A stretch of DNA of 64,000 nucleotides from Candidatus Woesearchaeota archaeon (GTDB lineage Archaea; Nanobdellota; Nanobdellia; SCGC-AAA011-G17; UBA489), in contig CAYMIM010000013.1 of assembly GCA_964390715.1 (NCBI GenBank), positions 27,311-91,310 of the forward strand. Direction: 5' to 3'. Below, piece by piece: positions 1,618-45,033 of the stretch. Below the pieces are notes generated by a model. That model had not been told where the DNA came from. It did no database searches and worked only from the letters and a program-made list of their open reading frames with translations. The translations under genes were made by a program, and so were the position numbers. Numbering within the stretch: position 1 is the stretch's first letter; each line of letters opens with the position of its first letter.

Positions 1618-3068
1618 TTCCTATCAGAATAGTTTTGAGATAATAATTTCCCTCGTTTATAAGAATGCACGAAAGATTTAAAGAGAGAATCTTGTTGTGT
1701 AGGATCATCAAGAGAACTTAAAAATTGAGATTTAAGGTCCCCAGGAATCAAAGAAAGCACACCACCATATAAAGAAGGAAATAAGTCTCTATTTTTGTTC
1801 AAAATCTGAAGTAAAGAAAGAGATTGTGCGACAAAATAATGTTCTGGTTTTTTAAGGGGGAGATTAGAGATACCAGACGGAGATTCTTGACGACGTTTGT
1901 CATTTCTTGAAGTTAGTTGAAGAGAGTCAGATTGTCTAAGGCTAAGATAAGTAAAAACGGTTCCTATATTATGTAAAAGCACCTCTACAGCCCCTATAGC
2001 AAACCTATGTTTATTATCATCTGTAGAAGATAATTGGAGCTGGTGTCGCTTAATAAGGTCTTCTAGTTGTTGATCGTGAATCTGAGAAAGTTGATCCAAA
2101 GAAAACATGGCTCTCAAGCGAGGATCCATTAGCAAAGAGATCATATCTAAGTCTACAGGACCTTTGCGCATATCAGTAAGATCACAAAGAGCAAACTTTA
2201 GAGAAGAACCATCTCCAGAACAACGATAAAGAATATTATCCGGTCGAAAATCGCCATGAATAATAGTCTCAGGAGCTTCCAAATATTCTATTAAAGACAT
2301 GCGTTCACGATAATGACCATATCTTTGATTCCAATCTAACAACCTATTTTCAGAAGCGTCCTCATTTAGAAGATGTGGAATTTTAGCTTTAGATTGGCTA
2401 GATATATAAAAGTTTCCTAAAGTCTTAAACAAAGCACGTAAATTACGATTTAAAAATTTATGAATATCAGAGCGTTCATTGTATCGAAGAGAGACTTTCT
2501 CTGGATGTTCTCCAGAAGATAAATTTACTCGAGCTAAAGAATCATGACTTTCTGTGAGAATGGTAGTTAAATCCTTTTGTACATCTTGACGAAGGTCAGA
2601 TCTTCTCTGTTCCTTTCTACTCCTCTTAAATGCCCAGTATTGTTCATCAAGTCGTTTATAGTATGATCCATCAAGAGCAGTCATAACTACAAAATGATTT
2701 GTAGGATCATGAAGCACAGGCTGTGGTTGATTATCATTAATTTCGTGCAGTAAAGAAAGGTTAATATATTCGGCTTGATCTAACTGCATTTCTGTTGGCT
2801 CAGCTAAGCCTGGTCGCATATGTATACTTTCTTCAGGAGGTAGAAATCGTTTGATAATAAAATTTTTAGGTCCTGCTTTTAAGTCAGAAGAAGTAATGGT
2901 GATTTTGTAAACTTCTGAACGAGTACCTCGATAGATTAATGCTACGTTATGTTCGATTTGAAGATCGGAAGAAATACTTAAAGATTGAGAAAGATGACTA
3001 TGAAAGGGCTTAGAAGTAGTTATAGCTTTAATCCATCTCAAGTCCGGTGTAGCTTCGACAGGTACCAT
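1614..3068 (-). CDS. Protein-kinase-like fold protein (APH/choline-kinase/RIO-like phosphotransferase family)
   Basis: Motif IIHGDFRPDNILY (HGDxxxxN catalytic loop) followed by ALCDLTD (DFG-equivalent Asp) in a 484-aa ORF. Confidence 0.5.
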   Translation of the reverse strand: MVPVEATPDLRWIKAITTSKPFHSHLSQSLSISSDLQIEHNVALIYRGTRSEVYKITITSSDLKAGPKNFIIKRFLPPEESIHMRPGLAEPTEMQLDQAEYINLSLLHEINDNQPQPVLHDPTNHFVVMTALDGSYYKRLDEQYWAFKRSRKEQRRSDLRQDVQKDLTTILTESHDSLARVNLSSGEHPEKVSLRYNERSDIHKFLNRNLRALFKTLGNFYISSQSKAKIPHLLNEDASENRLLDWNQRYGHYRERMSLIEYLEAPETIIHGDFRPDNILYRCSGDGSSLKFALCDLTDMRKGPVDLDMISLLMDPRLRAMFSLDQLSQIHDQQLEDLIKRHQLQLSSTDDNKHRFAIGAVEVLLHNIGTVFTYLSLRQSDSLQLTSRNDKRRQESPSGISNLPLKKPEHYFVAQSLSLLQILNKNRDLFPSLYGGVLSLIPGDLKSQFLSSLDDPTQQDSLFKSFVHSYKRGKLLSQNYSDRK

Positions 3069-10698: not shown

Positions 10699-11409
10699 TT
10701 ATTTCCCATATCTTCGTTGTCGTTTCTGGAATTCATTAATGCAAGCGACAAAGTCTTTCTTTTCAAATTCAGGCCATAATGTATCGGGTAAGAAAATAAT
10801 TTCACTATAGATAGATTGCCAAGGCAAAAAGCCGCTTAAACGTGATTCAGATGTTCTAATGATTAAGTCTGGTTCATCTTGCATGTAGAGGTTTTCAGAG
10901 AACACTTGTTCATTAATGTCTTCAATTTTAAGTTTATTATCTTTAACTTGTTCGGCTATTTTCTTTGCTGCGTCAACAACTTCCGCTCGTCCACCATAGG
11001 CCATAGCGAAATTGACAACATATTGAGTGTGACTCTTAGTCAAATCCATTATTTTTTGCATGCGTTCCTGAATATCTTTGGGAAACATCCAAAGTCTTCC
11101 TATAAAATGGAAGCGAAGATTGCTCTCATGAATTTTAGGATCCGCGAGGACAGTGTCAAATTCCTTTCTGAAAAGATCCATTAAGTAGTTAAATTCATTT
11201 TTAGGTCTATCAAAATTTTCAACAGAAAACGCGTATAAAGTTAATTCTTTGATATCGTATTCCTTGCACCACTCAAAAAGATGTCTTAGTTTTTTTGCCC
11301 CCCACTCATGTCCTTTCCACGGTTTTAACATTAAGCGTTTAGCGAATCGTCTATTACCGTCAAGAATAATTCCTATATGGTGAGGCACGTTGTTGAGTGT
11401 TGGTTTCAT
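10699..11409 (-). CDS. uppS: Undecaprenyl/tritrans,polycis-polyprenyl diphosphate synthase (cis-prenyltransferase)
   Basis: HIGIILDGNRRFAKR...GHEWGAKKL...ELTLYAFSVENFDRPKNEFNYLMDLF matches UPPS conserved regions. Confidence 0.85.
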   Translation of the reverse strand: MKPTLNNVPHHIGIILDGNRRFAKRLMLKPWKGHEWGAKKLRHLFEWCKEYDIKELTLYAFSVENFDRPKNEFNYLMDLFRKEFDTVLADPKIHESNLRFHFIGRLWMFPKDIQERMQKIMDLTKSHTQYVVNFAMAYGGRAEVVDAAKKIAEQVKDNKLKIEDINEQVFSENLYMQDEPDLIIRTSESRLSGFLPWQSIYSEIIFLPDTLWPEFEKKDFVACINEFQKRQRRYGK

Positions 11410-11472
11410 TGCTAAGACCTCTAAAGAACTGCGGAAAATTGATTTAAATACCTTTCGTTGGTTACCGGAGAA

Positions 11473-19837: not shown

Positions 19838-21841
19838 TTAGTCTATTTTTCCACTACCAGTAATGGGGTAGCAACAGTTATTGACGTCGCATCCATATTT
19901 TTCTGGATCTCCACAATCGCTAGGCTGAGAACAGCTTTGCCCGCCAGTTTTACAAATAGGAGGTTTAGGATCTGGCTGACAGGAGCAACCGCTTGGACCA
20001 TTAGGTTTGCAAGTGTAGTTGGGTGAGCAAGCGCCGCCACAAACAAGCCCTGAACAATAAGGCAATGCTCTGCAACCGCTCGGAGTGATTGGTCCTGTTG
20101 TAGATCCTCCTGGGCCCCATCCTGGGAGAGCGGGTGGTAATGGCGGCACTACAGGTGCTGGATCGCCTGGTCCGCCGGGATAAGGTCCAACTGCTCTGCG
20201 AGCACTTCCACTACAAGTACAGTCTGCTAAACAGGTAGTTCCTGCGGGACAATAACCTACAGTACCAGGCTCACATTCTTCGAAAAAATCAACCCGACCA
20301 TTGCCACAGCTACTGCCACCTAAAGGTCGACAGTCACAGAAAGCGGTGCATTCTTTTCCAACAGGACAACCTGAAGGACTTTTTCCAGTATCACATTGCT
20401 CCCATCCTGTAGATGAAATTTTACCATCGCCACAATAATCAGTAAAAGTATAGCAGGTGCATCCTTTAGTGCATACTTTGCCAGTACCACAGCCACTAGA
20501 AAGAATAGGATCACCATTATTCGCGCCATCATCGCAAAATTCTGGACCCTCGATGTTACCATTGCCACAAAATGCGGGAGGAATACTGGGTGATGTGCAT
20601 TGACAAGTGAGATGACTACAGCGTTGTGGTGAAGTGCAAGCTCCAGGAGGAATAACTTGACCGTTTGCATCAAATTCACAATTTTCTGAACCTTCAATAC
20701 GACCATCGCCACAAGTACTGCCGATGCTAGGAGGTTCACAAACACCACCTTTAAGAAGATTACAAATATCGCCTAAATTGCATTCACTGTTTTTAGTGCA
20801 GGGTCTGCAGGCGCCAAAAATAGGGCTAACAATTTCTTTGTCGCAGATTTCATTGCCATAGTTGCATTCATTATTGCCACCACAAGGGCGACATTGTTTA
20901 ATGAGAGTATCACAGATGGGTTTTTTTGGATCTTGCGATTTGCATTCTGCATTGTTAATACAAAGACCAATACCTTCTCTACCACAACGGGAAGGTTGTG
21001 TAGAATCAATACACCATTCAGTAGGGTTGCAATCCTTAACGATCCTACCGTTACTATAATAGGGTGTTTTAGTTCCTGCTGGAGAGTCACAAGGTTCACA
21101 ATAATGAGAGAGTGTATTGCAAACCATGGCGGGATAATTACAATCTTTATTTGTTAGACATGATTTAAAAGGATCACTACACCGTCCGCCTAAGCATATT
21201 TGTCCACTAGTAGTACATTGATTATCTCTGGCGCAAGGAATACAGACACCATTGGCAATATCACAAAGACCCGTAGTTTTCTCGCAGTCTTCATTTTTAC
21301 TGCAGGAGCATTTGCATGCTTGTGGATGCTCGCGGGGGAAGCAGCCTAAAGAAGTTACAGAGCTGCCACAGGCAGATTTATCTTTGCCGTCGCATTGCTC
21401 AAAAGCTTCTCGTTGATTATTGCCACATTCATAAAGCAAAACATTGGTATCATTATTATAGAGTTGGACATAATGTAATCCTTCATTCAAAGGAAGAACA
21501 CCAACAACATCTGCGGGTACGTTCAGTGTCATGTCATTGCCAGCTAATTTGTAGCACAGCATGCCTTTATTACACCATCTTGTTGATCCGCCACTGCTTG
21601 GACCAACTTGTTGTTGAGTAACTCCGCTAGGGACGCGCATGACAACAACACTGGAAGTGCCAGAACCTAAATTATTGACTTGGGTAATCCCGACATTTAA
21701 CGCTTGTAAAGCGTCTTGTAATTCTGCCAAGCGATTGCTGTCAATGCGTTCTGTGGAGAAGAAAAGTAAGGGAATAATGACAACTAAGATAACACAAGTT
21801 AAGATCAAATAATCAAACGTAGATTGTGCTTGCTTCTGCAT
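19838..21841 (-). CDS. Large Cys-rich repeat surface protein with archaeal class III (type IV pilin-like) signal peptide; candidate pilus-associated adhesin
   Basis: Start placed at MQKQAQ/STFDYLILTCVILVVIIPLLFF (Q+1 and D+5, pilin-like, then a hydrophobic helix). About 600 aa of CxxC-rich repeats (CEPCDSP, CRPCGGNNEC, CRPCTKNSEC). Pro/Gly-rich linker GGPGDPAPVVPPLPPALPGWGPGG. The track's longer 686-aa ORF has an unlikely N-terminal extension. Confidence 0.6.
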   Translation of the reverse strand: MQKQAQSTFDYLILTCVILVVIIPLLFFSTERIDSNRLAELQDALQALNVGITQVNNLGSGTSSVVVMRVPSGVTQQQVGPSSGGSTRWCNKGMLCYKLAGNDMTLNVPADVVGVLPLNEGLHYVQLYNNDTNVLLYECGNNQREAFEQCDGKDKSACGSSVTSLGCFPREHPQACKCSCSKNEDCEKTTGLCDIANGVCIPCARDNQCTTSGQICLGGRCSDPFKSCLTNKDCNYPAMVCNTLSHYCEPCDSPAGTKTPYYSNGRIVKDCNPTEWCIDSTQPSRCGREGIGLCINNAECKSQDPKKPICDTLIKQCRPCGGNNECNYGNEICDKEIVSPIFGACRPCTKNSECNLGDICNLLKGGVCEPPSIGSTCGDGRIEGSENCEFDANGQVIPPGACTSPQRCSHLTCQCTSPSIPPAFCGNGNIEGPEFCDDGANNGDPILSSGCGTGKVCTKGCTCYTFTDYCGDGKISSTGWEQCDTGKSPSGCPVGKECTAFCDCRPLGGSSCGNGRVDFFEECEPGTVGYCPAGTTCLADCTCSGSARRAVGPYPGGPGDPAPVVPPLPPALPGWGPGGSTTGPITPSGCRALPYCSGLVCGGACSPNYTCKPNGPSGCSCQPDPKPPICKTGGQSCSQPSDCGDPEKYGCDVNNCCYPITGSGKID

Positions 21842-21924
21842 GATACTCTTTTCCTTAAGGCTTATTTTTTCAGGATGGTATAAATACTTTATGAACAACT
21901 CTCAAGGAATAACAAAAAGAAGCA

Positions 21925-21940
21925 AAGTTTATATACTACT
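21925..21940 (+). promoter_or_regulatory. TATA-like element (GTTTATATACTA) in the divergent intergenic region upstream of pilin gene 1; a second TATA (TATTTATACC, minus strand) serves the Cys-rich gene
   Basis: AT-rich box about 60 to 70 nt upstream of the ATG at 22001. Divergent arrangement with the 19838..21841 gene. Confidence 0.3.
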
Positions 21941-22000
21941 GCAACGTCAAAAATTGTATCCATGTTCAAACAAAGTAAACGAATAAGAGGTGGTAAGAGA

Positions 22001-22486
22001 ATGGTGCAAAAAAGAGGACAAGCGGCCATGGAGTTCTTGATGACTTATGGCTGGGCGTTGTTAGTAGTTTTAATCGCGATTGGCGCTTTAGCGTTCTTCG
22101 GAGTATTGAATCCAAGTAGATTCTTGCCGAACTCCTGTACTTTAGCTCCAGGATTTAGTTGCAATGACTTCAGAGCAAGTGATGGCGATGATAATATCCT
22201 TGTTGTGATTCAAAATGGATTAGGTGACAATCTCAACTCAGTTACTTTAAAGTTATCTGGTAGTAACCCTGATTGTGGCGGTTCATCATCAACAACAGGA
22301 AGAGCATTTACACCAGGATCAACGACACTCAATGATGGTGCATCAACTCAATTTACCATGGCCTGTACTGCAGGTAACTTGGTTAAAGGAAATAAGTTGA
22401 AAGGAGACCTTCAAATTGATTATACTATCGGAACAGGTCTTGCACATAAAAAAATTGGTCAACTAGTTGTTGGAATTGAAGCGTAG
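22001..22486 (+). CDS. Archaeal type IV pilin-like protein (class III signal peptide)
   Basis: MVQKRG/QAAMEFLMTYGWALLVVLIAIGALAFFGVL: basic leader, Q+1, E+5, hydrophobic helix. The track's start at 21962 adds an unlikely 13-aa extension. Confidence 0.7.
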   Translation: MVQKRGQAAMEFLMTYGWALLVVLIAIGALAFFGVLNPSRFLPNSCTLAPGFSCNDFRASDGDDNILVVIQNGLGDNLNSVTLKLSGSNPDCGGSSSTTGRAFTPGSTTLNDGASTQFTMACTAGNLVKGNKLKGDLQIDYTIGTGLAHKKIGQLVVGIEA

Positions 22487-22525
22487 TCCTTCTTTTCTTT
22501 CTTTTTCTTTATTTTAATAAACTAT
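22487..22525 (+). terminator. T-rich tract after pilin gene 1 (archaeal oligo-T terminator candidate)
   Basis: GTCCTTCTTTTCTTTCTTTTTCTTTATTTT immediately after the stop codon. Confidence 0.3.
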
Positions 22526-22554
22526 AAAAAGAGTGTTCTTTATAAAAATTTCAC

Positions 22555-24396
22555 ATGAAAAAGAAAACAGAGATAATCCTTGTTATTCTATTATTGTTGC
22601 TTGCTACAGCATGGAGATTTATTTTTTGGCATAATGGCATTTTTGGTTCAGATGCTCTTTATCACTATAGTGTTGTAGAACAAGCACTTAAAGAAGGAAA
22701 ACTATCTAATGATAACCTATTGTCAGTGTGCTACGAAGGAATAACTACTGGACATCCTCAGGGGTATTATGTTGTGCCTTATTTTCTAGGAAAAATCGTG
22801 GGAGTTGATAATGCATTCATAATAGCTCCGATAATTCTAGGATTAATAACGCTTTTTTGTGCATACTTGCTCATTAAGTCAATATGGAATACTAAAGTTG
22901 CGCTGCTCACGCTTTTTTTTCTCGCGATTTCATTAGGACATATCTCTAAGTCATTTGCTTTTTCATGGAGGGGAGAAAATATAGTCTATCCGTTCATTCT
23001 TTTATCCTTATTCTGGATGCTAAAATCCTTTTCAAAAAAGGAAAAAAGCTCTGCCATCCTTGCTGGAATCATATCTGGTCTTACAGCATGGTTCTGGAAT
23101 GGATACCCCTTAGTGATGATTGTTTTCTTTTGCGCACTTTTTTTCTACATTAGTTGCCAGTACTTCAAAGCAGACATATTGAGGTTTAAAGAAGAGATAA
23201 ATTTAGCAACAATAAGTGTAGGAAGCCAAGCAGTCGTATTAATGTCAATTATCTACCTAACTGAGCAGTCAGGAAAAGCAGTCTTGTTTGGAAAAGAATA
23301 TTATCTTTGGGGTGTACTAATGAGTATACTTGCTCTTTGGGTTTTAAGAATAAGCAAGGTAAAAAAAACGAAAAAACCATTTATTGGTGTTGTAATCATA
23401 GGAGCAGGTATAGTTTTCCTTTTATGGAATAAAATAAGGACAATCGCACAAGGTTTTGGTTCAATAAAGCCAGAAATGCCCATTCTTGAGCTACAACAAA
23501 CATTGCCTCATCAATATTTTTTCGCATTTTACATACTATGCGTCACAAGTATTTTAGGTTTGTATTTTTTCTGTAAAGAATTCAATAATAAAAAAGCAAT
23601 TTTCGCAGGCTTATTAATGCCTAGTCTCTATTTAATAATCACTGCTAGTAGATATATTTATTTTGCGAGCATCCCCATAATCACATTGACAGCTATATTC
23701 TTAAACAATAAAAAAATTATAAGAAAGAAATTTGATATCTTTATTGTAATAACTTTTGCCTTAATGGCTATAATGATGATCTACTCGTTGTATGCGGTAC
23801 CAAGATATTTTTCAGAAAGTTTATTTATTGATACTCAAGAGCCTTATTTGTTTATAAAAGAGAATAGTGAGACGGATGCGTGCGTTGTTGAAATCTCTGG
23901 GCGTGGAGCAACTATTGAGGGATTGTCAAAACGATATTCGTATTTTGAACCAATAGGATTTTCTGAAGAAAGACATAGAAAAGTAGGATCCTTCCTTTTG
24001 GCGAATACTTCTGAGAATACGCTAGGGATCGATAATCTCTACATACTCCTTAATTATCGCGATTTTTCAAAATTAAGAGGGATGGCAAAAGCTGCTGAAA
24101 AGAATAATATTACTTTTTTCAGAATAAATGAAGGCATGAATGAAAAAGTGAATGAAACTAAAGTAAAAGAAGATTCTAATTTCATGAAATATATCTATGT
24201 AAATGAAAAAATGTTCATAAATGAAAGTGGCAAAGGATGTGTATATGTCTATTTAAGTGATTATTTTTATCTAAGTGATGAAATCTGTGAATCAAACATG
24301 TTTAAAATGATTACCAACCAAACTATGAAAAATTTCAAGAATGTTTATTTCAAAGATGGTTATGCTATCTACAAGTACGAAGTTAGTGCTTCTTAA
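22555..24396 (+). CDS. Polytopic GT-C-fold-like membrane glycosyltransferase (ArnT/PMT/oligosaccharyltransferase-like), about 400-aa TM domain plus about 200-aa soluble C-terminal domain
   Basis: More than 10 hydrophobic helices. Early loop FGSDALYHYSV is an acidic D-containing motif reminiscent of GT-C first-loop motifs. No WWDYG motif, so not a canonical AglB. Confidence 0.4.
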   Translation: MKKKTEIILVILLLLLATAWRFIFWHNGIFGSDALYHYSVVEQALKEGKLSNDNLLSVCYEGITTGHPQGYYVVPYFLGKIVGVDNAFIIAPIILGLITLFCAYLLIKSIWNTKVALLTLFFLAISLGHISKSFAFSWRGENIVYPFILLSLFWMLKSFSKKEKSSAILAGIISGLTAWFWNGYPLVMIVFFCALFFYISCQYFKADILRFKEEINLATISVGSQAVVLMSIIYLTEQSGKAVLFGKEYYLWGVLMSILALWVLRISKVKKTKKPFIGVVIIGAGIVFLLWNKIRTIAQGFGSIKPEMPILELQQTLPHQYFFAFYILCVTSILGLYFFCKEFNNKKAIFAGLLMPSLYLIITASRYIYFASIPIITLTAIFLNNKKIIRKKFDIFIVITFALMAIMMIYSLYAVPRYFSESLFIDTQEPYLFIKENSETDACVVEISGRGATIEGLSKRYSYFEPIGFSEERHRKVGSFLLANTSENTLGIDNLYILLNYRDFSKLRGMAKAAEKNNITFFRINEGMNEKVNETKVKEDSNFMKYIYVNEKMFINESGKGCVYVYLSDYFYLSDEICESNMFKMITNQTMKNFKNVYFKDGYAIYKYEVSAS

Positions 24397-25723
24397 AGAA
24401 GATAAGTTTAATGGTTAACAAAAGAATCTTGATATCAAAGAACAAAGACCAGTTCTCAATATAAAAAACATCGTGTTTAATACGTTCATCTAGAGAAGTG
24501 TTACCGTAATAGCCATTGACTTGCGCCCAGCCAGTCATGCCTCCTTTGACAGCATGTCGTTCAAGATAGTGAGGTATTTTATCTTTAAACTGGTTGATAA
24601 AGAAAGGTCGTTCTGGTCTAGGTCCTACAAGAGACATATGCCCTAAAAAGACGTTGAAAAGTTGCGGTAGTTCATCTAAATTAGTTCTTCGTAAAAATCC
24701 GCCAAGAGGAATAATTCTAGAATCATGATTGTCCGCCCACTTTGGACCAGTTTGGTGTTCAGCGTCCGGCATCATAGTACGAAATTTATAAAGAATAAAA
24801 GGCTTAGAATTATAAGAAACTCTTTCCTGTTTGTAGAAAACGAATCCTTTCGAAGTTAATTTGATAAGAAAAGCAATCACAATAAATAAAGGTAAAGAAA
24901 GTAAGATAAAAAATAAAGAAAAAAAGATATCTACTAGCCGTTTCAAAACAGGATTAAATCCTTTCAAGTTTGTTTCTTTAATATGTAAAACTGAAAGAGG
25001 GCCTATTTGCTCAGGAAGTGATCTCTTGGTGACAATATCAACAATACTGGGCACTACCTTATAAGAAATATCATGTCCTCCTTTCTCCATAATATAAAGT
25101 ATCTTGGATTGATCTTCTTTAGGCAAATGCATAATAATTTCATCGACTACATGAGTAGATAAGAGTTGACTTAATTGTTTCAGAGAAGAAGGATTGAGAA
25201 AATGAGCTAATCGATAACCATGTTCTCTGGTAATTTTTTCTTGGAAAAACTTTCTATACATAGGATCACAAATAAGCAAAGCAGTAGTTAAAAGATAGCC
25301 CCGACGGTTAAGATATGATCTCAAAGAGTTCAAAAGAAGTCTTCCAAAGCTAATAAAAAGAAAGCTGAAAATAAAACTTACAGCTATAAAGATCCTTGAA
25401 TAAGAAACTTCACGTTGAAGAAAAGTAAAAGTGACAAAAATAAAGAAAACAAAGAGTGTAGACTTGAAAATAGTATAATATTCCTCAAATATTTTTTCCT
25501 TTTTATACAGATGGAGTAAATTAAAAATAATAATATAGATAACTACAATAAAAACTAAGCTAAAAAGATAAGTAATAAGCGAAGGAATTCCTTTAGTCAC
25601 ATCTAAAATACCAGAATAGAATCTAAACCAGAAAGAAAAGAGATAAGCGGTTGCAATAAAGAAAATATCTATCAATACAGTAAGAAAGATGATAAACGAT
25701 GAATTTTTTTTAAACATGCTCAT
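24383..25723 (-). CDS. Polyprenyl-phosphate sugar phosphotransferase, WbaP/bacterial sugar transferase family (initiating phosphoglycosyltransferase)
   Basis: C-terminal domain KPFILYKFRTM...LDELPQLFNVFLGHMSLVGPRPERPFF...GMTGWAQVNG matches the family signature. N-terminal TM helices. Confidence 0.8.
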   Translation of the reverse strand: MSMFKKNSSFIIFLTVLIDIFFIATAYLFSFWFRFYSGILDVTKGIPSLITYLFSLVFIVVIYIIIFNLLHLYKKEKIFEEYYTIFKSTLFVFFIFVTFTFLQREVSYSRIFIAVSFIFSFLFISFGRLLLNSLRSYLNRRGYLLTTALLICDPMYRKFFQEKITREHGYRLAHFLNPSSLKQLSQLLSTHVVDEIIMHLPKEDQSKILYIMEKGGHDISYKVVPSIVDIVTKRSLPEQIGPLSVLHIKETNLKGFNPVLKRLVDIFFSLFFILLSLPLFIVIAFLIKLTSKGFVFYKQERVSYNSKPFILYKFRTMMPDAEHQTGPKWADNHDSRIIPLGGFLRRTNLDELPQLFNVFLGHMSLVGPRPERPFFINQFKDKIPHYLERHAVKGGMTGWAQVNGYYGNTSLDERIKHDVFYIENWSLFFDIKILLLTIKLIFFKKH

Positions 25724-26487
25724 AGTAATCTAAACCCATATTTCTTATAATAAATAAACATGCTCTTTAGGTGGTAAAAAAAGGTTTTGCTAAAGAGATT
25801 ATAGCTTGCTCGTTGATAAACATGGGTAGCTATAGCGGAAGGATAGTATACTATTCTCCAGCCAGCTTTTTTCGCTCTTTGGCATAAGTCTATATCTTCA
25901 AAATAAAGGAAAAAATGATGATCTAAAAGCCCTATCTGATCAAACGCTGTGCGACGAATAAAAAGAAATGCGCCAATAGACCAATCGACGTCTTGAGTTT
26001 TATCATGATCAATATCCAACATAAGATAATTTCTTACTATTCTAGATCTAGGGAAAAAAGGTTGAATAAAATGTGCTAAAAAAACTGGATATCGTCTACA
26101 AGAAGGCTGTAAAAGATTATTAGGATAGAGGAGTTTGCAAGAAAGAACACCAACAGAGGTCTGCTTCTGCATATAAGTAAACACTTTTTGCAGGGTATCT
26201 TTTTGTACATATACATCAGGGTTTAAAAGTAAAATATAATCTCCTCGAGATTGTCGTATAGCTATATTGCATGCAGAAGAAAAACCAACATTTTTTATAG
26301 TTCTAATCAGAGTAACAGGATAACGTTGAAGAATAGCTAAAGTAGTATCTTTGGAGTTATTATCCACAACAATAATTTCTAGATCTTTGAAAGATTGTTG
26401 TTGAAGAGCCTCAAGACAAGAACCAATATACTTTTCAGAGTTATAAGTAACAATAACAACTGAAATAGTTAGTTTAGGTTTTGGCAT
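25720..26487 (-). CDS. Glycosyltransferase family 2
   Basis: ISVVIVTYNSEKYIGSCLEAL...IIVVDNNSKD...DxD-type region. Confidence 0.7.
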   Translation of the reverse strand: MPKPKLTISVVIVTYNSEKYIGSCLEALQQQSFKDLEIIVVDNNSKDTTLAILQRYPVTLIRTIKNVGFSSACNIAIRQSRGDYILLLNPDVYVQKDTLQKVFTYMQKQTSVGVLSCKLLYPNNLLQPSCRRYPVFLAHFIQPFFPRSRIVRNYLMLDIDHDKTQDVDWSIGAFLFIRRTAFDQIGLLDHHFFLYFEDIDLCQRAKKAGWRIVYYPSAIATHVYQRASYNLFSKTFFYHLKSMFIYYKKYGFRLL

Positions 26488-26490
26488 AGT

Positions 26491-27294
26491 TTAGGAAAGC
26501 TTGTTAGCGGCAAATTTCTTCATCTGTGCTCTAAATCGTTTTGTTATAAAGGGTCGTAACAATAATCTATAACTTTTATACAAAGGATAAAGCAAAATAT
26601 AGGACGGTCTAGTAAAGAGATGTGGATGATTCTTTTTAATTCTAGAATAGAGATAAGCATGCTTCTGAAGAGCGTTATGAATCATAGTTTTGCCATGTTT
26701 TCGATAGAAAAATAAAGGTTCTGGAATGACAAAGGATTGCCAATTGCGCTCTAAAAGAGAGATGTAAAAGTCCCAATCCTCATAGCCATAAATCATGTTC
26801 TGATTATACCCTATAGTTTGGTTATATGCTTTTCTTCTAATAACAGAAGACACAACTGCTGAATTGTAGAAACGCATGCTACTCAAAGTTGCAGTTCCAG
26901 TGACTCCAATCCCCTGTACATCACCAAAATACTGAATATAGGGGTAAACAAAACCAATAGTAGCAGAAGATTCCAAAATGTTGACAGCTTTTTCAATATA
27001 CGTAGAATCTATGCAATCATCAGCATCTAAAGGAAGGAAATATTTTCCACGAGAGCGTCGAATGCCATTGTTTCGTGCTGAAGCTAGTCCTTGATTATCT
27101 TGATGAATCACAGTAATGTTCTTGTGGCGAATACTGCCAAGCACTTTTTTCGTATTTGTGTCAATTGATCCATCATTGACAACAATAATTTCAATAGGCT
27201 TGTAAGTAGAAGATAAAACACTCTGAAGAGTTTCCTGAATATAGTTACCATAATTATAACAAGGAACAATAACACTCACTAAAGGTAAAGTCAT
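26491..27294 (-). CDS. Glycosyltransferase family 2
   Basis: VSVIVPCYNYGNYIQETLQSVLSST...IIVVNDGSID...LDADD. Confidence 0.7.
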   Translation of the reverse strand: MTLPLVSVIVPCYNYGNYIQETLQSVLSSTYKPIEIIVVNDGSIDTNTKKVLGSIRHKNITVIHQDNQGLASARNNGIRRSRGKYFLPLDADDCIDSTYIEKAVNILESSATIGFVYPYIQYFGDVQGIGVTGTATLSSMRFYNSAVVSSVIRRKAYNQTIGYNQNMIYGYEDWDFYISLLERNWQSFVIPEPLFFYRKHGKTMIHNALQKHAYLYSRIKKNHPHLFTRPSYILLYPLYKSYRLLLRPFITKRFRAQMKKFAANKLS

Positions 27295-28328
27295 AATTTC
27301 ATCCTCCGGAAAAGTGCATTAAATCGTTTTTCATAAGTATGATCTCGTAAAGTTCTGGTATAAGCTGCTTTCGCTATAGCTATTCTTTCATCATCATGGT
27401 TAAGATAATAGTTTATTTTTTCTAAAAGATCTGGGATAGTAGTAAAAACAACAATTTCTTTATTAGGAATATAATAATCTTCTAAATTATCAGCAGAATT
27501 AGTTAATAAAAAACTACGAGTTCCTGGAATCTCAAAATTACGACCTTTTATCTGGTCCTGTGACAGAAAGAAAGTTCTGAAGGTATTAAGTATTTCTCTA
27601 GGAGGTTTAATATAAGGCTTATTTCTTTTAAAAAAAAGACGAAGAAAGTTTTTATTGGTTGATACATTAGTTAAATTAAGATTGATTTTGCTTTGAGAAA
27701 AACAATCTAGCATAGCTTCTTGTGTCAATCTACCTTGTGGCCAGCCAGTTCCCCAGCAAGTAATGTCCACGCCTTTATTTTTTAGTGTTTGAATAATCTG
27801 TTTTCGATCTCCATGAGATTGTCCTACAAAAGAAACAGGGTATTTTTTCTTTGCTGAAGAAGGTTTATAAAAAAAATGATTGCATGCCCACTGTGTAGCA
27901 AGTACTTGGTTGTAACCAATGCGATGATAAAGAGGTAAAGCTTGTGAGTAAGTTGTTGATACCCAGTGAAAATCTGGTGCATAATATTGAGAATAAGTAT
28001 AAAAACGCCAATGATCATCCGCAAACCAATTAAAAGTAATTGCACCGCTATGTGCGGTGATATATTGAATAGTAGCGTGTGTAATTTCATCTGTGAATAA
28101 AAAAAAGAAGCAAAGATCAGGTTGTATTTCAGAAACTTTCTTGAGTAATAAAGCATTCATAGCTTCCTTGCCAATTTTATGCATTATTTCATCAAACGGA
28201 AAATAGATAATTTCATGTTTTTTATTATTCATATGAACTAAAGAATGATAAAAATTGTAATGTTCAAAACTGTATCCCCTGCCCATCTTTCCATAATCGT
28301 ATTTCATCGCTATGTAAAGAATTTTCAT
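27291..28328 (-). CDS. Glycosyltransferase, GT-B (GT1/GT4, CgeB-like) C-terminal domain
   Basis: C-terminal NFEIPGTRSFLLTNSADNLEDYY...EIVVF...LLEKINYYLNHDDERIAIAKAAYTRTLRDHTYEKR resembles GT4/CgeB donor-binding domains. Confidence 0.5.
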   Translation of the reverse strand: MKILYIAMKYDYGKMGRGYSFEHYNFYHSLVHMNNKKHEIIYFPFDEIMHKIGKEAMNALLLKKVSEIQPDLCFFFLFTDEITHATIQYITAHSGAITFNWFADDHWRFYTYSQYYAPDFHWVSTTYSQALPLYHRIGYNQVLATQWACNHFFYKPSSAKKKYPVSFVGQSHGDRKQIIQTLKNKGVDITCWGTGWPQGRLTQEAMLDCFSQSKINLNLTNVSTNKNFLRLFFKRNKPYIKPPREILNTFRTFFLSQDQIKGRNFEIPGTRSFLLTNSADNLEDYYIPNKEIVVFTTIPDLLEKINYYLNHDDERIAIAKAAYTRTLRDHTYEKRFNALFRRMKL

Positions 28329-28586
28329 AGGATAATATGTTTAGGCGTCCTTTTTATTTTTATGGGCTGGGCTATTTATAAGGAACGCTAGCCTTTTATA
28401 GACTTATTATAAGTTTATGGGATGCTATCCAGAGTAAAGAATAAAATAATTTCTCAGATAGACAGAGTAAAGCAAAGGCAAACTAACAAAAAAAGATTGG
28501 CCTTCTTTAAAAAAATTAAAAAATATAATAAATAAGAAAAGAAAAGATCTAGCTTTCACAGTTAAAGATGATATTATCCGAATACA

Positions 28587-29285
28587 TCAAATATGGGCTC
28601 GCCAGATAAAGAAAGTATCATGAAGATTTAGTTGAACATTCTTAAAACCAGATTGCAATAAAAGTTCCTTAAAGTAAGTTGGTTGATATTCTCGTATATG
28701 AAAGGGAGAATCGCTGAATTTTTCAAGAGAAGTATTATTGGTTGGTGTACAACCAATAAAAAATCCTTCTTTTTTCAAATGTTTTTTTATGTAATGCAAT
28801 AAAGTAACAAAATTCTGTTCACTAATATGTTCAACAAATTCAGTGCTAGAAATAACATCAAAAAGACCAAAATTATCTGATAAAATGGTAATATTCTTTT
28901 GGTGATAGGTTATTTTTTTGTTGTGAGAAAATCGAAATTCAGCTGGAGATATCTTATCTACAGAAATAACACTCTGGACAGTATTTTGGTTGGCAATCTG
29001 ATGAGTAAGATAGCCGAATCCACAGCCAATATCAAGAACTCTTCCATGAACAAGAGAAAGAATAGGTTGTGAATAAGCTTCAAAATACTCTTTTTCTGCA
29101 TCTGTAGTAGTCGGATCATATCGTTCAGTTGGTGGAATAAAAAAAGCATGGATTCGAATATAAAGAGGAGAAATAACAGGTAGACGAGTCATCTTTTTAG
29201 TAAAAGAAAATAAAAAAGGAAGTTTAACCTTCACATAATTTTTTGTAGAGGAGAAAAGGTTCATAAGTTTTGTTCCTTTAGCCAC
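28587..29285 (-). CDS. Class I SAM-dependent methyltransferase
   Basis: VLDIGCGFGYLT (motif I GxGxG). Confidence 0.65.
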   Translation of the reverse strand: MAKGTKLMNLFSSTKNYVKVKLPFLFSFTKKMTRLPVISPLYIRIHAFFIPPTERYDPTTTDAEKEYFEAYSQPILSLVHGRVLDIGCGFGYLTHQIANQNTVQSVISVDKISPAEFRFSHNKKITYHQKNITILSDNFGLFDVISSTEFVEHISEQNFVTLLHYIKKHLKKEGFFIGCTPTNNTSLEKFSDSPFHIREYQPTYFKELLLQSGFKNVQLNLHDTFFIWRAHI

Positions 29286-29929
29286 ACGTCTAGGATTTCT
29301 TTTTCCTTACCTATTAAAGAAAGGGATAAAATTTCTTTGGCAACAGCTTTTTCATTGATAGGTTTAAAGGATTTCTTAGCTGTCACAAGAATATTATCTA
29401 AAAAGTCTACAGCACTAGGAAGAACTTTATTTGCATGTTTAGAAATTCTGCTTGGAATATATTTGCTAGTATAATTGGTAAATAATTTAACTTGAATATC
29501 TTCAAACCCGAGTTTATCAAGAATATATCTAAATTTTTTTTCTCCCCAATAATCTAAATGAAATGCCCAAGGAGACTCTTGTGAACCAAAAATATGTCGT
29601 GCTATTTTAAATTGTGTTTTGAGGTCTGCTGTAGCAAATTTCTTGACAGTAGTTTCAAAATCTGGAGTTTCAAGCACTAACTTTCCACCAGGTTTTAACC
29701 ATCTACGCCAGCGAAATAAGTGTTTTAAGATCTCTTGTCGTGAAAAATGTTCAAGAAGGTGATGTGTTCGCACTTCATCAACGCTATTGTCTGCATATGC
29801 AAGCTCTCGAATGTCTTTATACACATCGGCTTTTGCCTTCATAACTGTTTGACCTTCTGTAGGGAGATCAATATTGACATAGCCAGCTAAATAACTCTCT
29901 CCACAACCTAAATGTAATTTTACTTCCAT
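29261..29929 (-). CDS. Class I SAM-dependent methyltransferase
   Basis: HLGCGESYLAGYVNIDL (motif I-like), LKPGGKLVLETPD (post-motif II). Confidence 0.55.
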   Translation of the reverse strand: MEVKLHLGCGESYLAGYVNIDLPTEGQTVMKAKADVYKDIRELAYADNSVDEVRTHHLLEHFSRQEILKHLFRWRRWLKPGGKLVLETPDFETTVKKFATADLKTQFKIARHIFGSQESPWAFHLDYWGEKKFRYILDKLGFEDIQVKLFTNYTSKYIPSRISKHANKVLPSAVDFLDNILVTAKKSFKPINEKAVAKEILSLSLIGKEKEILDVWLKEQNL

Positions 29930-30609
29930 GTTTTTATTTCACCTTTTTCCAAATACAAAATTCTATCGCTGAATTTTTTAACAGTAGCAATATCATGACT
30001 TACAAAAAGAATAGTCTTCTGTTGTTTTTTGAAATTTCTAAAGACTTCATAACATTTTTTCTGGAACACTTCATCTCCAACTGCTAAAACTTCATCCACT
30101 AAGAGAATGTCAGCATCAACTTGACTAGCTATCGAAAAGCCAAGACGAGCAACCATGCCTGAACTGAGATTTTTAAGTTTGGTATCAACAAATTTTCTAA
30201 GGTCAGAAAAGGAAATAATAGTGTCATATCGTCTCTCTATCTCTTGATGAGATAAGCCTAGCAAAGAACCATAGAGAAATATATTCTCTTTGACTGTTAA
30301 TTCTCCTTGAAATCCAACTCCTAATTCTAAAAAAGGACTTAAAGTGCCATGAACATGCACATAGCCTTGAGTAGGTTGTAATACTTTAGCAATAATTTTG
30401 AGAAAAGTGCTCTTGCCTGCTCCATTTGGACCAACAATACCAATAAATTCTCCCTTCTTGATGGATAAACTAACATCTTTCAAAGCATAAAAACGTTCAT
30501 AAGAATGGCTGAGATTAAAGAGACCTAGAATATAAGATTTAACCCCATACTTTTTATCGTGAGGAATGTTAAAAATTTTCGTAACATGCTCTAAAGAAAT
30601 AATATTCAT
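29920..30609 (-). CDS. ABC transporter ATP-binding protein, polysaccharide/O-antigen-type exporter (Wzt/KpsT/TagH-like)
   Basis: Walker A GIVGPNGAGKST, signature LSSGM, Walker B ILLVDE. Start overlaps the upstream methyltransferase. Confidence 0.8.
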   Translation of the reverse strand: MNIISLEHVTKIFNIPHDKKYGVKSYILGLFNLSHSYERFYALKDVSLSIKKGEFIGIVGPNGAGKSTFLKIIAKVLQPTQGYVHVHGTLSPFLELGVGFQGELTVKENIFLYGSLLGLSHQEIERRYDTIISFSDLRKFVDTKLKNLSSGMVARLGFSIASQVDADILLVDEVLAVGDEVFQKKCYEVFRNFKKQQKTILFVSHDIATVKKFSDRILYLEKGEIKTWK

Positions 30610-31364
30610 TAGACTAACTCCGCAAAATAGACTGCCATTTTTTTATAGATAAAGAGTCCTATGAAAAAAACTAGTAAAGAATAACCAAGTGATAACACAT
30701 AGAAAGAAAAATTAAAGTGGTTGGAAAGAAGAAGGTCTCTCAGTCCTTCAATAATCAATGCAAACGGATTAAGATACATAAAAGAAAGGAATCGCAGAGG
30801 AATAATATTGACAGGATAGACAATAGGAGTCAGCCAGAAAAATGATTGAAGAAGTATCCTCCAAATATGCTGTACATCTGGAAAGCGAATTGTTAACGCG
30901 CCAACAATATAGGAAATACCCAAAGTAAGTAAAAATAAATTAAAAAGGAAAAAGATCATCAAGAAAGAATGGAAAGAAAAAGTAAAGCCAGTAAAGAAAT
31001 AAAAGATAAAGAATACCAAAAAATTAAGAACCAATCCTAAAAAAGTTGTTATGTTAGATGCAAAAACTATAACTGTTCTGGGAAAATAGATTTTTTTCAT
31101 AATGCTAGATTTAACGGAGAGTGAAGTAATAGCATTTAAGGTAGCTTCATTAAAAAATCCCCAGAGAATAATGCCTAAAAATAAGAATAATGGATAATGT
31201 TCTACCTTGAACTTGACAAAGTAGCTAAAAACAACATATAACACCGTAAAAGTCAATAAAGGATTTAACAAAGACCATAAGTATCCTAGGGCAGATCCCT
31301 GATATTTAAGTTTAAAGTCGGTCCATGCGAAAATCTTTACAAGATTTAAGTAATATCTATCCAT
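30609..31364 (-). CDS. ABC-2 type transporter permease (Wzm/KpsM-like)
   Basis: 6-TM 251-aa protein immediately upstream of, and overlapping, the ATPase gene. Confidence 0.7.
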   Translation of the reverse strand: MDRYYLNLVKIFAWTDFKLKYQGSALGYLWSLLNPLLTFTVLYVVFSYFVKFKVEHYPLFLFLGIILWGFFNEATLNAITSLSVKSSIMKKIYFPRTVIVFASNITTFLGLVLNFLVFFIFYFFTGFTFSFHSFLMIFFLFNLFLLTLGISYIVGALTIRFPDVQHIWRILLQSFFWLTPIVYPVNIIPLRFLSFMYLNPFALIIEGLRDLLLSNHFNFSFYVLSLGYSLLVFFIGLFIYKKMAVYFAELV

Positions 31365-31463
31365 AAAATGGTTTTAAATCTGAAGGTTATATAACTTTTG
31401 TCATTCTCGAGTGGAAGAATATCTTTAAAAAGACAGAATTACTCCTAATCCGAGGTGAAAAGA

Positions 31464-32075
31464 GTGCAAAAAAGAGGACAAGCGGCCATGGAGTTCTTGA
31501 TGACTTATGGTTGGGCGTTGTTAGTAGTCTTAATCGCGATTGGCGCGTTAGCGTTCTTCGGAGTATTGAATCCAAGTAGATTCTTGCCACAACAATGTGT
31601 TCTAGGTCCAGGTCTTGCTTGCGCAGACTTCAAAGTAACATCTGTAGACCAAAAAGTACAAATCACTGTACAAAACGGCTTAGGTGAAGATTTAAAACAA
31701 TTCCAAATCTATGTTGATAATGTAGGCGGTAAGCACAAATGTGGAGGCTATTATGGCTACGTTGCATTTTATGTTAATTCTGCAAGTAGAAGTCCGCCTC
31801 TCCGAGACGGCAGTGCAGAGAAACTAATAAATTTATTTAATGGAAATGGTATTCAATGTGGAGGCGGTGTTAACAATTGTTGTACAGATTTCAAAAAACC
31901 TCCTTTGGGATTATATCCTTATGATCTATGCCCTTCAATAACGTCCTGCTATGCGGGAGAGCCACAATGGAAGGTAGGAGAAAAATTCAGTGAAGATATT
32001 GTAATCACTTATCAAACAGAAGGATCACAAATTCTCCATCAGCGAGTAGGTAGATTGACCACGCAAATTGAATAG
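31464..32075 (+). CDS. Archaeal type IV pilin-like protein, paralog of 22001..22486 with near-identical signal peptide/N-terminal helix; alternative GTG start at 31455
   Basis: (MKR)VQKRG/QAAMEFLMTYGWALLVVLIAIGALAFFGVLNPSRFLP, then a divergent Cys-containing C-terminal domain. TATA-like TCTTTAAAAAG about 30 nt upstream. Confidence 0.7.
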   Translation: MQKRGQAAMEFLMTYGWALLVVLIAIGALAFFGVLNPSRFLPQQCVLGPGLACADFKVTSVDQKVQITVQNGLGEDLKQFQIYVDNVGGKHKCGGYYGYVAFYVNSASRSPPLRDGSAEKLINLFNGNGIQCGGGVNNCCTDFKKPPLGLYPYDLCPSITSCYAGEPQWKVGEKFSEDIVITYQTEGSQILHQRVGRLTTQIE

Positions 32076-32077
32076 AG

Positions 32078-32440
32078 ATGACTGCTCGTATTTCTATAAG
32101 ACATAAAGAAAAAACCATTTTGAACGCGAAGGTCTATAGTTCTCTCTTGCTGCTCGCCAAAGGTCTTCGTTTCTCCAAGTCTCTTAAAAGAAATCAAGCC
32201 TTACTCCTAGCTTCGTCAAAAGAGAATCTCCAGACCATAGACATGCTCTTCGTCTTCTTTCCCATAGACGCGCTCTGGCTCGACAAGAACAAAAGAGTAG
32301 TCTATATCGCTCGTAACATCAAACCCTTCACATGCGCAGTCACTGCTCCAAAAAAAGCGCGGTATATCTTAGAATGCCAAGCAAATACAACACATGCGAT
32401 AAAGCGTAACGACAAGATCTCCTTCAAGATTCACCAGTAG
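32078..32440 (+). CDS. DUF192-family small protein (COG1430-like)
   Basis: IDMLFVFFPIDALWLDKNKRVVYIARNIKPF...A.YILECQAN pattern resembles DUF192. Confidence 0.4.
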   Translation: MTARISIRHKEKTILNAKVYSSLLLLAKGLRFSKSLKRNQALLLASSKENLQTIDMLFVFFPIDALWLDKNKRVVYIARNIKPFTCAVTAPKKARYILECQANTTHAIKRNDKISFKIHQ

Positions 32441-39657: not shown

Positions 39658-41067
39658 ATGAATGGAAAAAATGCGTCGTTCATCGTACTTATTGCCCTTC
39701 TGGTTATACCTCTCGTTTTTGCGAACCCTATTACTATTGTAGTAATGGAATCGCAAGACGAAGTGGAAGCGGGCAGCGTCGCGGAATTTACAGTAAAGAT
39801 AACCAATGATGGGTTAGATCGTGACGTCTTTAGCATCGAGCCGGACGAGTTTAATGTTTATCCCTTCTCTGACTTCGCTCAAAGAATTGAGGCTAAGCCG
39901 TCACAGGTAAAATTAGATGCTGGAGAAAGTGCTATCGTAAAAATTCTCATTAAAACCATTGATGTCACGCTACCAAATAAATATTATGATTCTAAAATCA
40001 TTGTCTCTTCAGTCATCCATCCAGAAAGTAAAGAGTCCATAATGCTCAAGACATATGTCGCGTCAGCGAAAAATATTATCGAGATTGTACCGCGGCTGGT
40101 GCAGCAAATCACGCCAGGAAAAGAAATTAATGTGCCCATCAAATTGAAGAATCGTTCTAGGTTAGTTATGGATCTTGAAGTTACTCTGGGTACTGACATT
40201 CCAAATATTGCCGAGCCTCTGCGCGTGAGCTTGCGGTCGCAAGAAGAAAAGCAAGTGGAAATGAAAATAAATGTTGATCCAACAGCGCTTCCAGGAGAGA
40301 GAAAGATAACTATTGCCGCTTATGAGAAAGATCAGCTTCGTGGCTCATTCATAACTGAGGTGTCCATCCTTCCAAAAGATCGTGTTGAAGAAGACAGAGA
40401 CGTAAAAAGAGGTTTCTTGTCATCCACGACAACTATCATTCGTGAAAATAAAGGAAATGTCGCTAGTGAGCAGCGAGTTGAGGCGAAATATAATATAATC
40501 CAGCGTATCTTTTCATCCATGACGCCAAAGCCAGAGACAGAGATAGGAAAAGTCATCTGGAAATTCACGTTACAGCCAGGAAGCAAGAAAACTATTGAGA
40601 TTTACAGCAATTACCGTCCTTTGCTCTATGGTATAATCGCGGTGATAATCTTTACAGCCATAGTGCTGTTCTCTATCGAGCGCAGCGTCGTCATCAAGAA
40701 GCGTACCTTCCGTGGAAAAGAAATGGTTGAGGGAGTAAAAGAATACAAGATTTTCATCTTGGTGCGTAATGGAAAGAAATATACTCTAAGCGATGTTAAA
40801 GTCATGGATCTCGTGCCCAACATATTGAATCTAACTTCTGATTTTGGATCATTGAGGCCTGACAGAGTGCAGCATAGTGATCGCGCGACGCGCTTGTTGT
40901 GGAATGTCATCAAGCTGGAGCCTCGTGAAGAGCGTGTCTTTTCCTACAAGATCCGCTTGAAGGACTCTATTGTCGGTGAAGTTGTTCTGCCTGTGGCTAT
41001 CATTCAGTTCGTAGACGCTAAGGACAAATTTGAGCAAGTCCAGTCCATGCGTGTTATTCTCGGATAA
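39658..41067 (+). CDS. Signal-peptide surface protein with beta-sandwich-like ectodomain, single C-terminal-proximal TM and about 130-aa cytoplasmic tail; function unknown
   Basis: MNGKNASFIVLIALLVIPLVFANP signal. TM YGIIAVIIFTAIVLFSI near residue 340. Confidence 0.5.
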   Translation: MNGKNASFIVLIALLVIPLVFANPITIVVMESQDEVEAGSVAEFTVKITNDGLDRDVFSIEPDEFNVYPFSDFAQRIEAKPSQVKLDAGESAIVKILIKTIDVTLPNKYYDSKIIVSSVIHPESKESIMLKTYVASAKNIIEIVPRLVQQITPGKEINVPIKLKNRSRLVMDLEVTLGTDIPNIAEPLRVSLRSQEEKQVEMKINVDPTALPGERKITIAAYEKDQLRGSFITEVSILPKDRVEEDRDVKRGFLSSTTTIIRENKGNVASEQRVEAKYNIIQRIFSSMTPKPETEIGKVIWKFTLQPGSKKTIEIYSNYRPLLYGIIAVIIFTAIVLFSIERSVVIKKRTFRGKEMVEGVKEYKIFILVRNGKKYTLSDVKVMDLVPNILNLTSDFGSLRPDRVQHSDRATRLLWNVIKLEPREERVFSYKIRLKDSIVGEVVLPVAIIQFVDAKDKFEQVQSMRVILG

Positions 41068-44919: not shown

Positions 44920-44923
44920 TTTT

Positions 44924-45017
44924 GGGCCGGTAGCTCAGCCTGGCTAGAGCACTTGGCTTTTAAACAAGCCAAAGCAAAGACACCAAGGGGTCGGGGGTTC
45001 AAATCCCCTCCGGTCCG
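44924..45017 (+). tRNA. tRNA-Lys (anticodon TTT) with an approximately 19-nt intron at 37/38 (about 44963..44981)
   Basis: Acceptor GGGCCGG/CCGGTCC plus G. D-arm GCTC-AGCCTGGCTA-GAGC. Anticodon stem CTTGG/CCAAG with loop CTTTTA[intron]A. T-arm GGGGG-TTCAAAT-CCCCT. Confidence 0.6.
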
Positions 45018-45033
45018 TTATACTCAACACAAA

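Follow-up and report, generated by a model that had tools for sequence, protein, structure and literature searches.

The window analysed here is a 64-kb stretch of DNA from a small DPANN archaeon of the Woesearchaeota/Nanoarchaeia type. It carries genes for FttA/aCPSF1, the proteasome, Mre11/Rad50, RNase J, RNA polymerase subunits, S7, EF-2, and EF-1alpha, and these gene identities mark it as archaeal chromosome. Two pilin-like genes, referred to as pilA and pilB, lie on the same strand and bracket a low-GC island for glycan synthesis and export (Table 1). The GC content is 0.32 in the island and 0.41-0.42 in both flanks; the fall begins directly after pilA and ends at pilB. A tRNA integration site for the island was considered and rejected, as the sole tRNA gene of the window, at 44923, is far off. 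A search of Pfam (E<=10) and NCBIfam (E<=1) with the 686-aa protein encoded next to pilA, o686, returned no meaningful match.

Table 1. Features of the pilA-pilB locus, with positions counted from the first nucleotide of the window.
Feature	Position	Strand	Description
o686	19838..21898	-	686-aa protein, divergent neighbour of pilA; syntenic in relatives L002 and L069 (54-56% aa identity)
TATA-like box TTTATATA	21928..21935	+	Putative promoter P_A; kept in every A-type upstream region
Shine-Dalgarno-like GAGGTGG	21987..21993	+	7 nt 5' of the pilA ATG
pilA	22001..22486	+	161 aa, A type, short; K-R-G/Q-A-A-M-E motif (slash, predicted cleavage) and H-domain
5' block, copy A	22004..22128	+	pilA codons 2-43; signal peptide VQKRG and hydrophobic alpha-1 helix to ...NPSRFL(P)
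Glycan-synthesis/export island	22555..31364	.	Low GC, between the two blocks; nine genes; Pfam matches
GT-C/STT3-PMT_2-like membrane protein	22555-24396	+	Island; Pfam
Bac_transf initiating transferase	24383-25723	-	Island; Pfam
GT2	25720-26487	-	Island; Pfam
GT2 (second)	26491-27294	-	Island; Pfam
Glyco_trans_1_2	27291-28328	-	Island; Pfam
Two methyltransferases	28587-29929	-	Island; Pfam
ABC ATPase	29920-30609	-	Island; Pfam; Wzm/Wzt-like exporter pair
ABC-2 permease	30609-31364	-	Island; Pfam; Wzm/Wzt-like exporter pair
TATA-like box TTATATAA	31387..31394	+	Putative promoter P_B; kept in L069_B, G80_B, L087_B, L083_B, and the chimeric L001_A
Shine-Dalgarno-like GAGGTGA	31452..31458	+	5 nt 5' of the pilB GTG
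pilB	31464..32075	+	203 aa, B type, long, Cys-rich; GTG start
5' block, copy B	31464..31588	+	pilB codons 1-42; starts at the GTG start codon
DUF192 gene	32078..32440	+	Begins 3 nt beyond the pilB stop; conserved neighbour on the 3' side in every relative

The leader, read directly in both genes, is M(V)QKRG followed by QAAMEFLMTYGWALLVVLIAIGALAFFGVL, and the motif is invariant across 50 homologues. Both open reading frames begin with (M)VQKRG and continue as QAAMEFLMTYGWALLVVLIAIGALAFFGVLNPSRFLP, which gives a short basic leader and then a hydrophobic stretch of ~25 residues. Cleavage is predicted before the Gln, with Gly at -1, Gln at +1, and Glu at +5 (Q-A-A-M-E). Gln at +1 together with Glu at +5 is the signature of substrates of EppA, an archaeal prepilin peptidase (PMC4371748; also PMC4858521). 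The 5' part common to the two genes is thus predicted to encode a class III (prepilin-type) signal peptide of the EppA type and the hydrophobic helix. An AlphaFold2 model of pilA, built with 50 homologues (pLDDT 89), consists of a helix at residues 4-32 and an eight-stranded beta-sandwich. The top Foldseek match of this model in the PDB was 8fk7_A, a subunit of the Pyrobaculum archaeal type IV pilus, and the match is weak (E=1e-3, TM ~0.3); the remaining matches were generic Ig-like folds. No relative with a solved structure was found by sequence profile. Searches of both pilins against Pfam (E<=10) and NCBIfam (E<=1) gave no family at E<=0.01, and the weaker matches were unrelated and far below the cut-offs. 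Some relatives bear the free-text name 'UPF0333 family' at JGI. No gene for a prepilin peptidase, pilus ATPase, or platform protein was found in the 64-kb window. The motif and the predicted fold give good but not complete support for the assignment of pilA and pilB as archaeal type IV pilin-like proteins. N-glycosylation of the pilins by the adjacent STT3-like enzyme was considered and is unsupported, since neither window pilin contains an N-X-S/T sequon.

Each gene has its own conserved upstream elements, a TATA-like box ~73-77 nt before the start and a Shine-Dalgarno-like motif. An alternative, conserved in-frame ATG for pilA lies at 21962, and the NCBI gene call uses it (174 aa). The B-type orthologues L087_B and L083_B have ATG where pilB has its GTG start. 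Both pilA and pilB are complete genes, and neither of them is a silent cassette.

The preliminary description had reported a near-identical direct repeat of ~135 nt at the 5' ends of the two pilin genes, at 22001..22135 and 31464..31598. The repeat is real and direct, and its copies lie 9,460 bp apart, but alignment at this offset limits it to 125 nt (122/125 identical). The first interval was also displaced by 3 nt, owing to the additional ATG of pilA at 22001-22003 ahead of the common GTG; the true pair is 22004..22128 and 31464..31588. That the copies differ at few positions was borne out by the alignment. The three mismatches (22051 C/T, 22069 T/C, and 22087 T/G) are all synonymous and at third codon positions, exact identity extends over 47 nt at most, and a fourth synonymous difference falls in the Pro codon just 3' of the block (22129 G/A). 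A blastn search of the window returned the block pair with E=2e-61 and no other repeat of such size, and a six-frame check found this N-terminus in two open reading frames only. A chance match is excluded. Nucleotide identity falls from 97.6% inside the block to ~50-65% over the next 100 nt; in successive 30-nt steps, the identical positions number 30, 28, 29, and 27, and then 19, 16, 16, and 14. On the 5' side of the GTG, the two loci lack similarity except for the GAGGTG Shine-Dalgarno-like motif. The downstream parts, which had been called unrelated, are in fact homologous: the proteins can be aligned over their whole length (tblastn, 39% identity, E=2e-38), they have common Cys/PG/C.DF and QNGLG motifs directly after the block, and their C-terminal strands are conserved. 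Relative to pilA, pilB contains a Cys-rich insertion of ~40 aa.

The identity of the block far exceeds what the shared amino acid sequence requires; the preliminary description had named the opposite outcome as grounds for refutation. Three independent controls agree on this. Among degenerate codons in the block, 35/39 are the same in both genes; at residues conserved further downstream, the figure is 17/37 (Fisher P=5e-5). Identical codons number 37/41, against ~16 expected under a null drawn from the codon usage of the window (P=7e-13). When the null was built from the usage of a highly expressed set (EF-1alpha, S7, and the pilin bodies), P was 5e-11. The same 117 nt were compared between genomes in 6,628 block pairs. 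Where the peptides were >=95% identical, nucleotide identity averaged 82%, and no pair among the 6,628 exceeded 94%; the A and B blocks of the window are 96.6% identical over these positions. The between-genome value of ~82% is slightly above ~75-78%, a rough estimate based on codon usage. Codon bias or a constraint at the nucleotide level may contribute to the block identity signal to some extent.

The pilins have homologues at >588 loci in the GTDB species representatives and in >1,500 protein clusters, essentially all in metagenome-assembled genomes (MAGs) of Woesearchaeota/Nanoarchaeia. Among 50 homologues, 35 alignment columns are invariant, and 25 of these are in the first 43 residues. 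In at least eight related genomes, the protein bodies downstream of the block form two sets of orthologues, A and B (A-A 51-90%, B-B 33-65%, and A-B 27-37% identity); hence, the duplication that gave rise to pilA and pilB is much older than the divergence of these genomes. As B-B identity is only 33-65%, the pilB body evolves much faster than the pilA body. An exact-pattern scan of metagenomes yielded 21 loci, none from the same species and the best ~75-80% identical in nucleotides. A back-translated AMEFLMTYGWA pattern had 0 matches in viral contigs.

The block does not follow the orthology of the bodies. The two copies in the window differ at 4 of 117 nt, whereas the pilA block differs from its A orthologues at 12-23/117 (19 in L102, the closest relative) and the pilB block from its B orthologues at 12-31/117. 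In 94% of codon bootstraps, each of the two window blocks had the other as its nearest neighbour. The A and B blocks of L002 likewise differ at 4/117 (bootstrap 73%), and more distant tandem pairs in L004 and L009 are 100% and 99% identical, with an abrupt fall after 120-150 nt. L069, with the gene order of the window, has A and B blocks that differ at 17/117, and therefore near-identity is not demanded by the architecture of the locus. In L001, G80, and L096, the two blocks differ at 17-20 positions. (L069 is the same organism as L084 plus L090, and L002 is the same as L082.)

The start of pilA carries a trace of the donor. It reads ATG GTG CAA AAA AGA GGA (MVQKRGQ), which is the sequence of the pilB or P_B type. 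A-type loci read as DNA have ATG ATA CAG AAA AAA GGT, and M-I-Q-[K/R]-K-G-Q is found in 10/12 of the other A-type genes for which the N-terminus was read; the two that deviate are P0004 and P0010, and MVQKRGQ occurs in 0/12. The GTG start codon of pilB was thus copied into pilA, where it is now read as Val2. These states point to transfer from pilB to pilA, at least for the 5' end of the block. The ends of the tract coincide with the loss of homology: one is at the start codon, beyond which the upstream sequences of P_A and P_B bear no relation to each other, and the other is at codon 42/43, where similarity collapses.

The block is best explained by a recent, tract-limited gene conversion between two old, independently expressed paralogues, to which we assign a probability of about 0.8. 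To judge from their blocks, similar conversions have occurred independently in other Woesearchaeota (L002, L004, and L009). The following course of events is proposed. All subunits would need to be cut by one peptidase and to pack against one another, with the alpha-1 helix as the core of the filament, and this common demand would account for the near-invariant peptide across the family. The constraint on the peptide would hold the DNA of the paralogues at ~80-85% identity, which may be enough for occasional homologous recombination by the presumed machinery of the cell. In the lineage of the window, a recent non-reciprocal event would then have overwritten one block copy with the other and erased the synonymous differences. 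Reciprocal crossover between the 125-nt direct repeats would re-pair promoters with pilin bodies, as is seen in one case (L001), and would be expected to delete or duplicate the pilA body together with the glycan island. The common core could allow a single machinery to process and polymerise two globular domains, by analogy with PilA1-6 of Haloferax volcanii (PMC4371748).

Three arrangements of the locus were found. The order o686, pilA, island, pilB, DUF192 is present in the window, L069, and G80, and L102 and L003 contain the left half of it, in which island genes come after pilA. In L002, the order is o686, pilA, pilB, DUF192 without the island; a 1.7-kb contig, L096, also has the island-less tandem of pilA, pilB, and DUF192. 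In L001, the ABC-2 permease gene is followed by the upstream region of P_B joined to a pilA body, and then by pilB and DUF192. The flanks of L001 and L069 are 89-91% identical in nucleotides. The 150 nt 5' of the A-type gene of L001 match the pilB upstream region of L069 at 129/150 positions and the pilA upstream region at 58/145, whereas its body matches pilA of L069 at 290/324 and pilB at 143/308. The two segments of homology overlap exactly in the block; therefore, a crossover inside the block probably re-paired the promoter with the pilin body beside the island. L001 is a MAG contig. A mis-assembly is unlikely because the block, at 125 nt, is shorter than the k-mer of 141 in the contig name (k141) and the blocks of L001 itself differ at 20/117. 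The pilB bodies of L001 and L069 are only 40% identical in amino acids despite flanks of ~90% nucleotide identity, and so the pilB body turns over very fast.

It had been suggested that the repeats could mediate deletion or inversion of the island. Deletion or duplication is possible, and the relatives do vary in structure at this place; inversion is impossible between two direct repeats on one strand. A wider reading is that the block is a portable homology 'handle', at which recurrent, unprogrammed crossovers, both within a genome and with DNA of related lineages, swap promoter, body, and island modules. It is suggested by the L001 chimera, by the 40% identity of the pilB bodies between ~90% flanks, and by the position of the low-GC island exactly between the blocks. 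We regard this wider role as conceivable but rather doubtful. If it were true, such exchange would diversify surface structures used for contact by presumably host-attached DPANN archaea, or used by viruses as receptors.

Programmed pilin variation was raised by the preliminary description, which noted a resemblance to antigenic-variation or cassette-switching loci. It could operate as a Neisseria-like cassette switch or as a deletion switch from pilA to pilB with loss of the island. Conserved 5' ends with variable 3' domains, direct repeats on both sides of the island, a pilB body that is hypervariable between close relatives, and the junction of P_B with pilA in L001 would all suit such a system. 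However, pilA and pilB are complete genes, and each has a conserved TATA-like box, a Shine-Dalgarno-like motif, and a start of its own; there are two copies only in the window; and no recombinase or invertase domain was found in the 25 genes scanned around the repeats. The segment exchanged is the invariant one, so that its transfer would yield no antigenic diversity. The rearranged genomes are ~10% diverged in nucleotides, which indicates evolutionary rather than physiological time. A switching locus is thus improbable, and this part of the preliminary description is not retained.

Still less probable is a nucleotide-level element common to both transcripts and kept as RNA, for example one that forms a structure in the mRNA, is targeted by a regulatory RNA, or controls translation. 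The identity does begin exactly at the start codon and spans the translation-initiation region, but the folding energies were no better than those of shuffled sequences (z = -0.44, 0.08, -0.11, and -0.91), Rfam gave no match at E<=1, and synonymous sites vary freely among orthologues. It is also very hard to sustain that the identity arose without recombination, from extreme purifying selection on the peptide leader and its helix together with the codon bias of highly expressed genes. This explanation can draw on a 41-aa peptide that is near-invariant in hundreds of Woesearchaeota genes and on a between-genome nucleotide identity somewhat above the rough codon-usage estimate. Yet both codon-usage nulls were rejected (P=7e-13 to 5e-11), conserved residues downstream share a codon in just 46% of cases, and orthologues that encode the same peptide differ at 12-31/117, as does the syntenic L069 pair at 17/117. 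Sharp boundaries of identity would also fit a 5' end that was copied or mis-joined onto an unrelated gene, through a recent segmental duplication or as an artefact of assembly. This can be virtually discounted, because A and B orthologues with this N-terminus occur in many genomes, the copies differ (3 mismatches, no exact run above 47 nt), and the gene order recurs in independent assemblies (L069/L084+L090, G80, and L102).

Recent conversion of the block, if correctly identified, provides a clean and quantified case of tract-limited gene conversion in DPANN archaea. To our knowledge, the recombination biology of this group is essentially unstudied. The two genes also belong to a very large pilin-like family that curated domain libraries have missed, with >1,500 homologues and no Pfam or NCBIfam model. 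The pilA-island-pilB region is a structurally variable surface-determinant region and a hotspot of recombination, with three arrangements in close relatives, one of which has its crossover in the block. For annotation, 5' identity of this kind should not be taken for a silent-cassette system, and the block may be a point of breakage or mis-joining in short-read assemblies and in MAG binning.

The closest functional analogue is the PilA1-PilA6 set of H. volcanii, dispersed adhesion pilins with a nearly fully conserved H-domain and divergent C-termini (Esquivel et al., 2013, reviewed in PMC4371748). As in that set, the genes of the window are complete and none is in an operon with pilus machinery. 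They differ in belonging to DPANN rather than Halobacteria, in having no detectable sequence relationship with the PilA proteins, in their EppA-type leader, and in number, with two copies that bracket a glycan island. Concerted evolution of PilA1-6 at the nucleotide level is not discussed in the review (PMC4371748). The EppA-processed pilins of Methanococcus maripaludis (PMC4371748; PMC4858521) share with the window pilins both the cleavage motif (Gly -1, Gln +1, Glu +5) and the hydrophobic helix behind it. Unlike them, the window pilins match no curated class III or pilin model, have no EppA gene in the window, and belong to a family specific to Woesearchaeota/Nanoarchaeia.

The closest evolutionary analogue is the gene conversion between the archaeal paralogues mtrA-1 and mtrA-2, which is limited to a domain and long-lasting (PMC4632066). 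In the mtrA paralogues of methanogens, as here, the duplication is old, one domain is repeatedly homogenised while the rest diverges, and the process recurs in separate lineages. The genes and their function are different, and the tract in the window is very short (125 nt). Conversion is also sporadic in the present family: the window, L002, L004, and L009 show a recent case, and L069, L001, G80, and L096 show none. In Pseudomonas aeruginosa, pilin allele groups have linked glycosylation genes, and viruses or partners for which pili serve as receptors have been proposed to drive pilin and glycan diversity (bioRxiv 10.1101/150227). The window resembles this system in that a variable pilin body is linked to adjacent glycan genes; P. 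aeruginosa differs in being a bacterium with one pilA allele per strain. For the window pilins, which lack N-X-S/T sequons, glycosylation by the island is unsupported.

An invertible pilin switch of the Piv or shufflon type has inverted repeats inside or beside pilin genes and a site-specific recombinase close by; the repeats of the window are direct, and no recombinase domain was found in the 25 genes around them. In the pilE/pilS system of Neisseria, the silent copies have neither a promoter nor the conserved 5' coding region; RecA-type conversion transfers variable 3' segments. A conserved 5' part, a variable 3' part, and conversion between copies are features common to both systems. In the window, unlike Neisseria, both copies are complete with their own putative expression signals, and the segment transferred is the invariant 5' one. 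The process itself is well known; what is new is its setting, an unstudied pilin family in DPANN archaea whose members here bracket a sugar-synthesis island.

The glycan island between pilA and pilB (22487..31463) forms a sharp compositional island, with a GC content of 0.32 versus 0.41-0.42 in both flanks. Island proteins share just 48-69% identity with those of L069, a locus of a related archaeon, versus approximately 85% for flanking housekeeping proteins compared with other relatives (L001 and L002). The low GC content and low protein identity relative to the flanks suggest faster turnover or a foreign origin of the island sequence. Directly 3' of pilA lies a GT-C membrane protein gene, whose matches to known families were all under the respective cut-offs (see table). 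No N-X-S/T sequon was found in the pilA or pilB protein; hence, the substrate of the GT-C protein is probably not an N-glycosylated pilin.

Other features of the window are listed in the table. No convincing family was found for the 686-aa or the 469-aa protein, and both may be surface proteins. The NUDIX gene and the adjoining 484-aa protein gene (952..3068) may constitute a defence or signalling pair. The RNA polymerase A'' and EF-2 genes each harbor one intein with a LAGLIDADG homing-endonuclease domain. Because it spans 96 nt, the only tRNA gene probably contains an intron.

Features of the window in addition to the pilin genes
Feature	Position	Strand	Remarks
SMODS-associated NUDIX domain gene	952-1617	-	Adjoins the 484-aa protein gene
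484-aa protein	1614-3068	-	Weak APH-like kinase match
686-aa protein	19838..21898	-	Conserved divergent pilA neighbour; weak Cys-rich acidic repeat match
GT-C membrane protein, 613 aa	22555..24396		Weak STT3, PMT_2, and archaeo_STT3 matches
469-aa protein	39658..41067	+	Weak DUF11/Ig-like matches
tRNA-Lys(TTT)	44923..45018		Sole tRNA in the window
RNA polymerase A'' gene	51152..53755		Intein-bearing
EF-2 gene	55540..59217		Intein-bearing

A second in-frame ATG (ATGTTCAAACAA...) is located 13 codons 5' of the SD-preceded pilA ATG (21962..22000). It is kept in close A-type orthologues, with the frame preserved across a 6-nt indel. The more distant L003 locus also has an in-frame upstream ATG, but its sequence is different. 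The NCBI gene call for pilA starts at the upstream ATG and yields a 174-aa protein (P0001). The leader preceding the predicted cleavage site would therefore be either 6 or 19 residues, depending on which ATG is the start.

Between the closely related L001 and L069, the pilB bodies (991..1644 and 10784..11455, respectively) share only 40% amino acid identity, whereas the pilA bodies share 90% identity and the flanks approximately 90% nucleotide identity. Judged by this contrast, the Cys-rich pilB domain is hypervariable. In the tandem pilin pairs of more distant Woesearchaeota (L004, 9398 and 10013; L009, 10013 and 10529), the first 150 nt are 99-100% identical and divergence is abrupt thereafter; in the L004 pair, identity also extends at least 60 nt upstream. 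Four B-type pilin paralogues (database entries P0134, P0139, P0141, and P0144) occur on a single 21.8-kb ENA contig, so the long Cys-rich B-type is expanded in some relatives.
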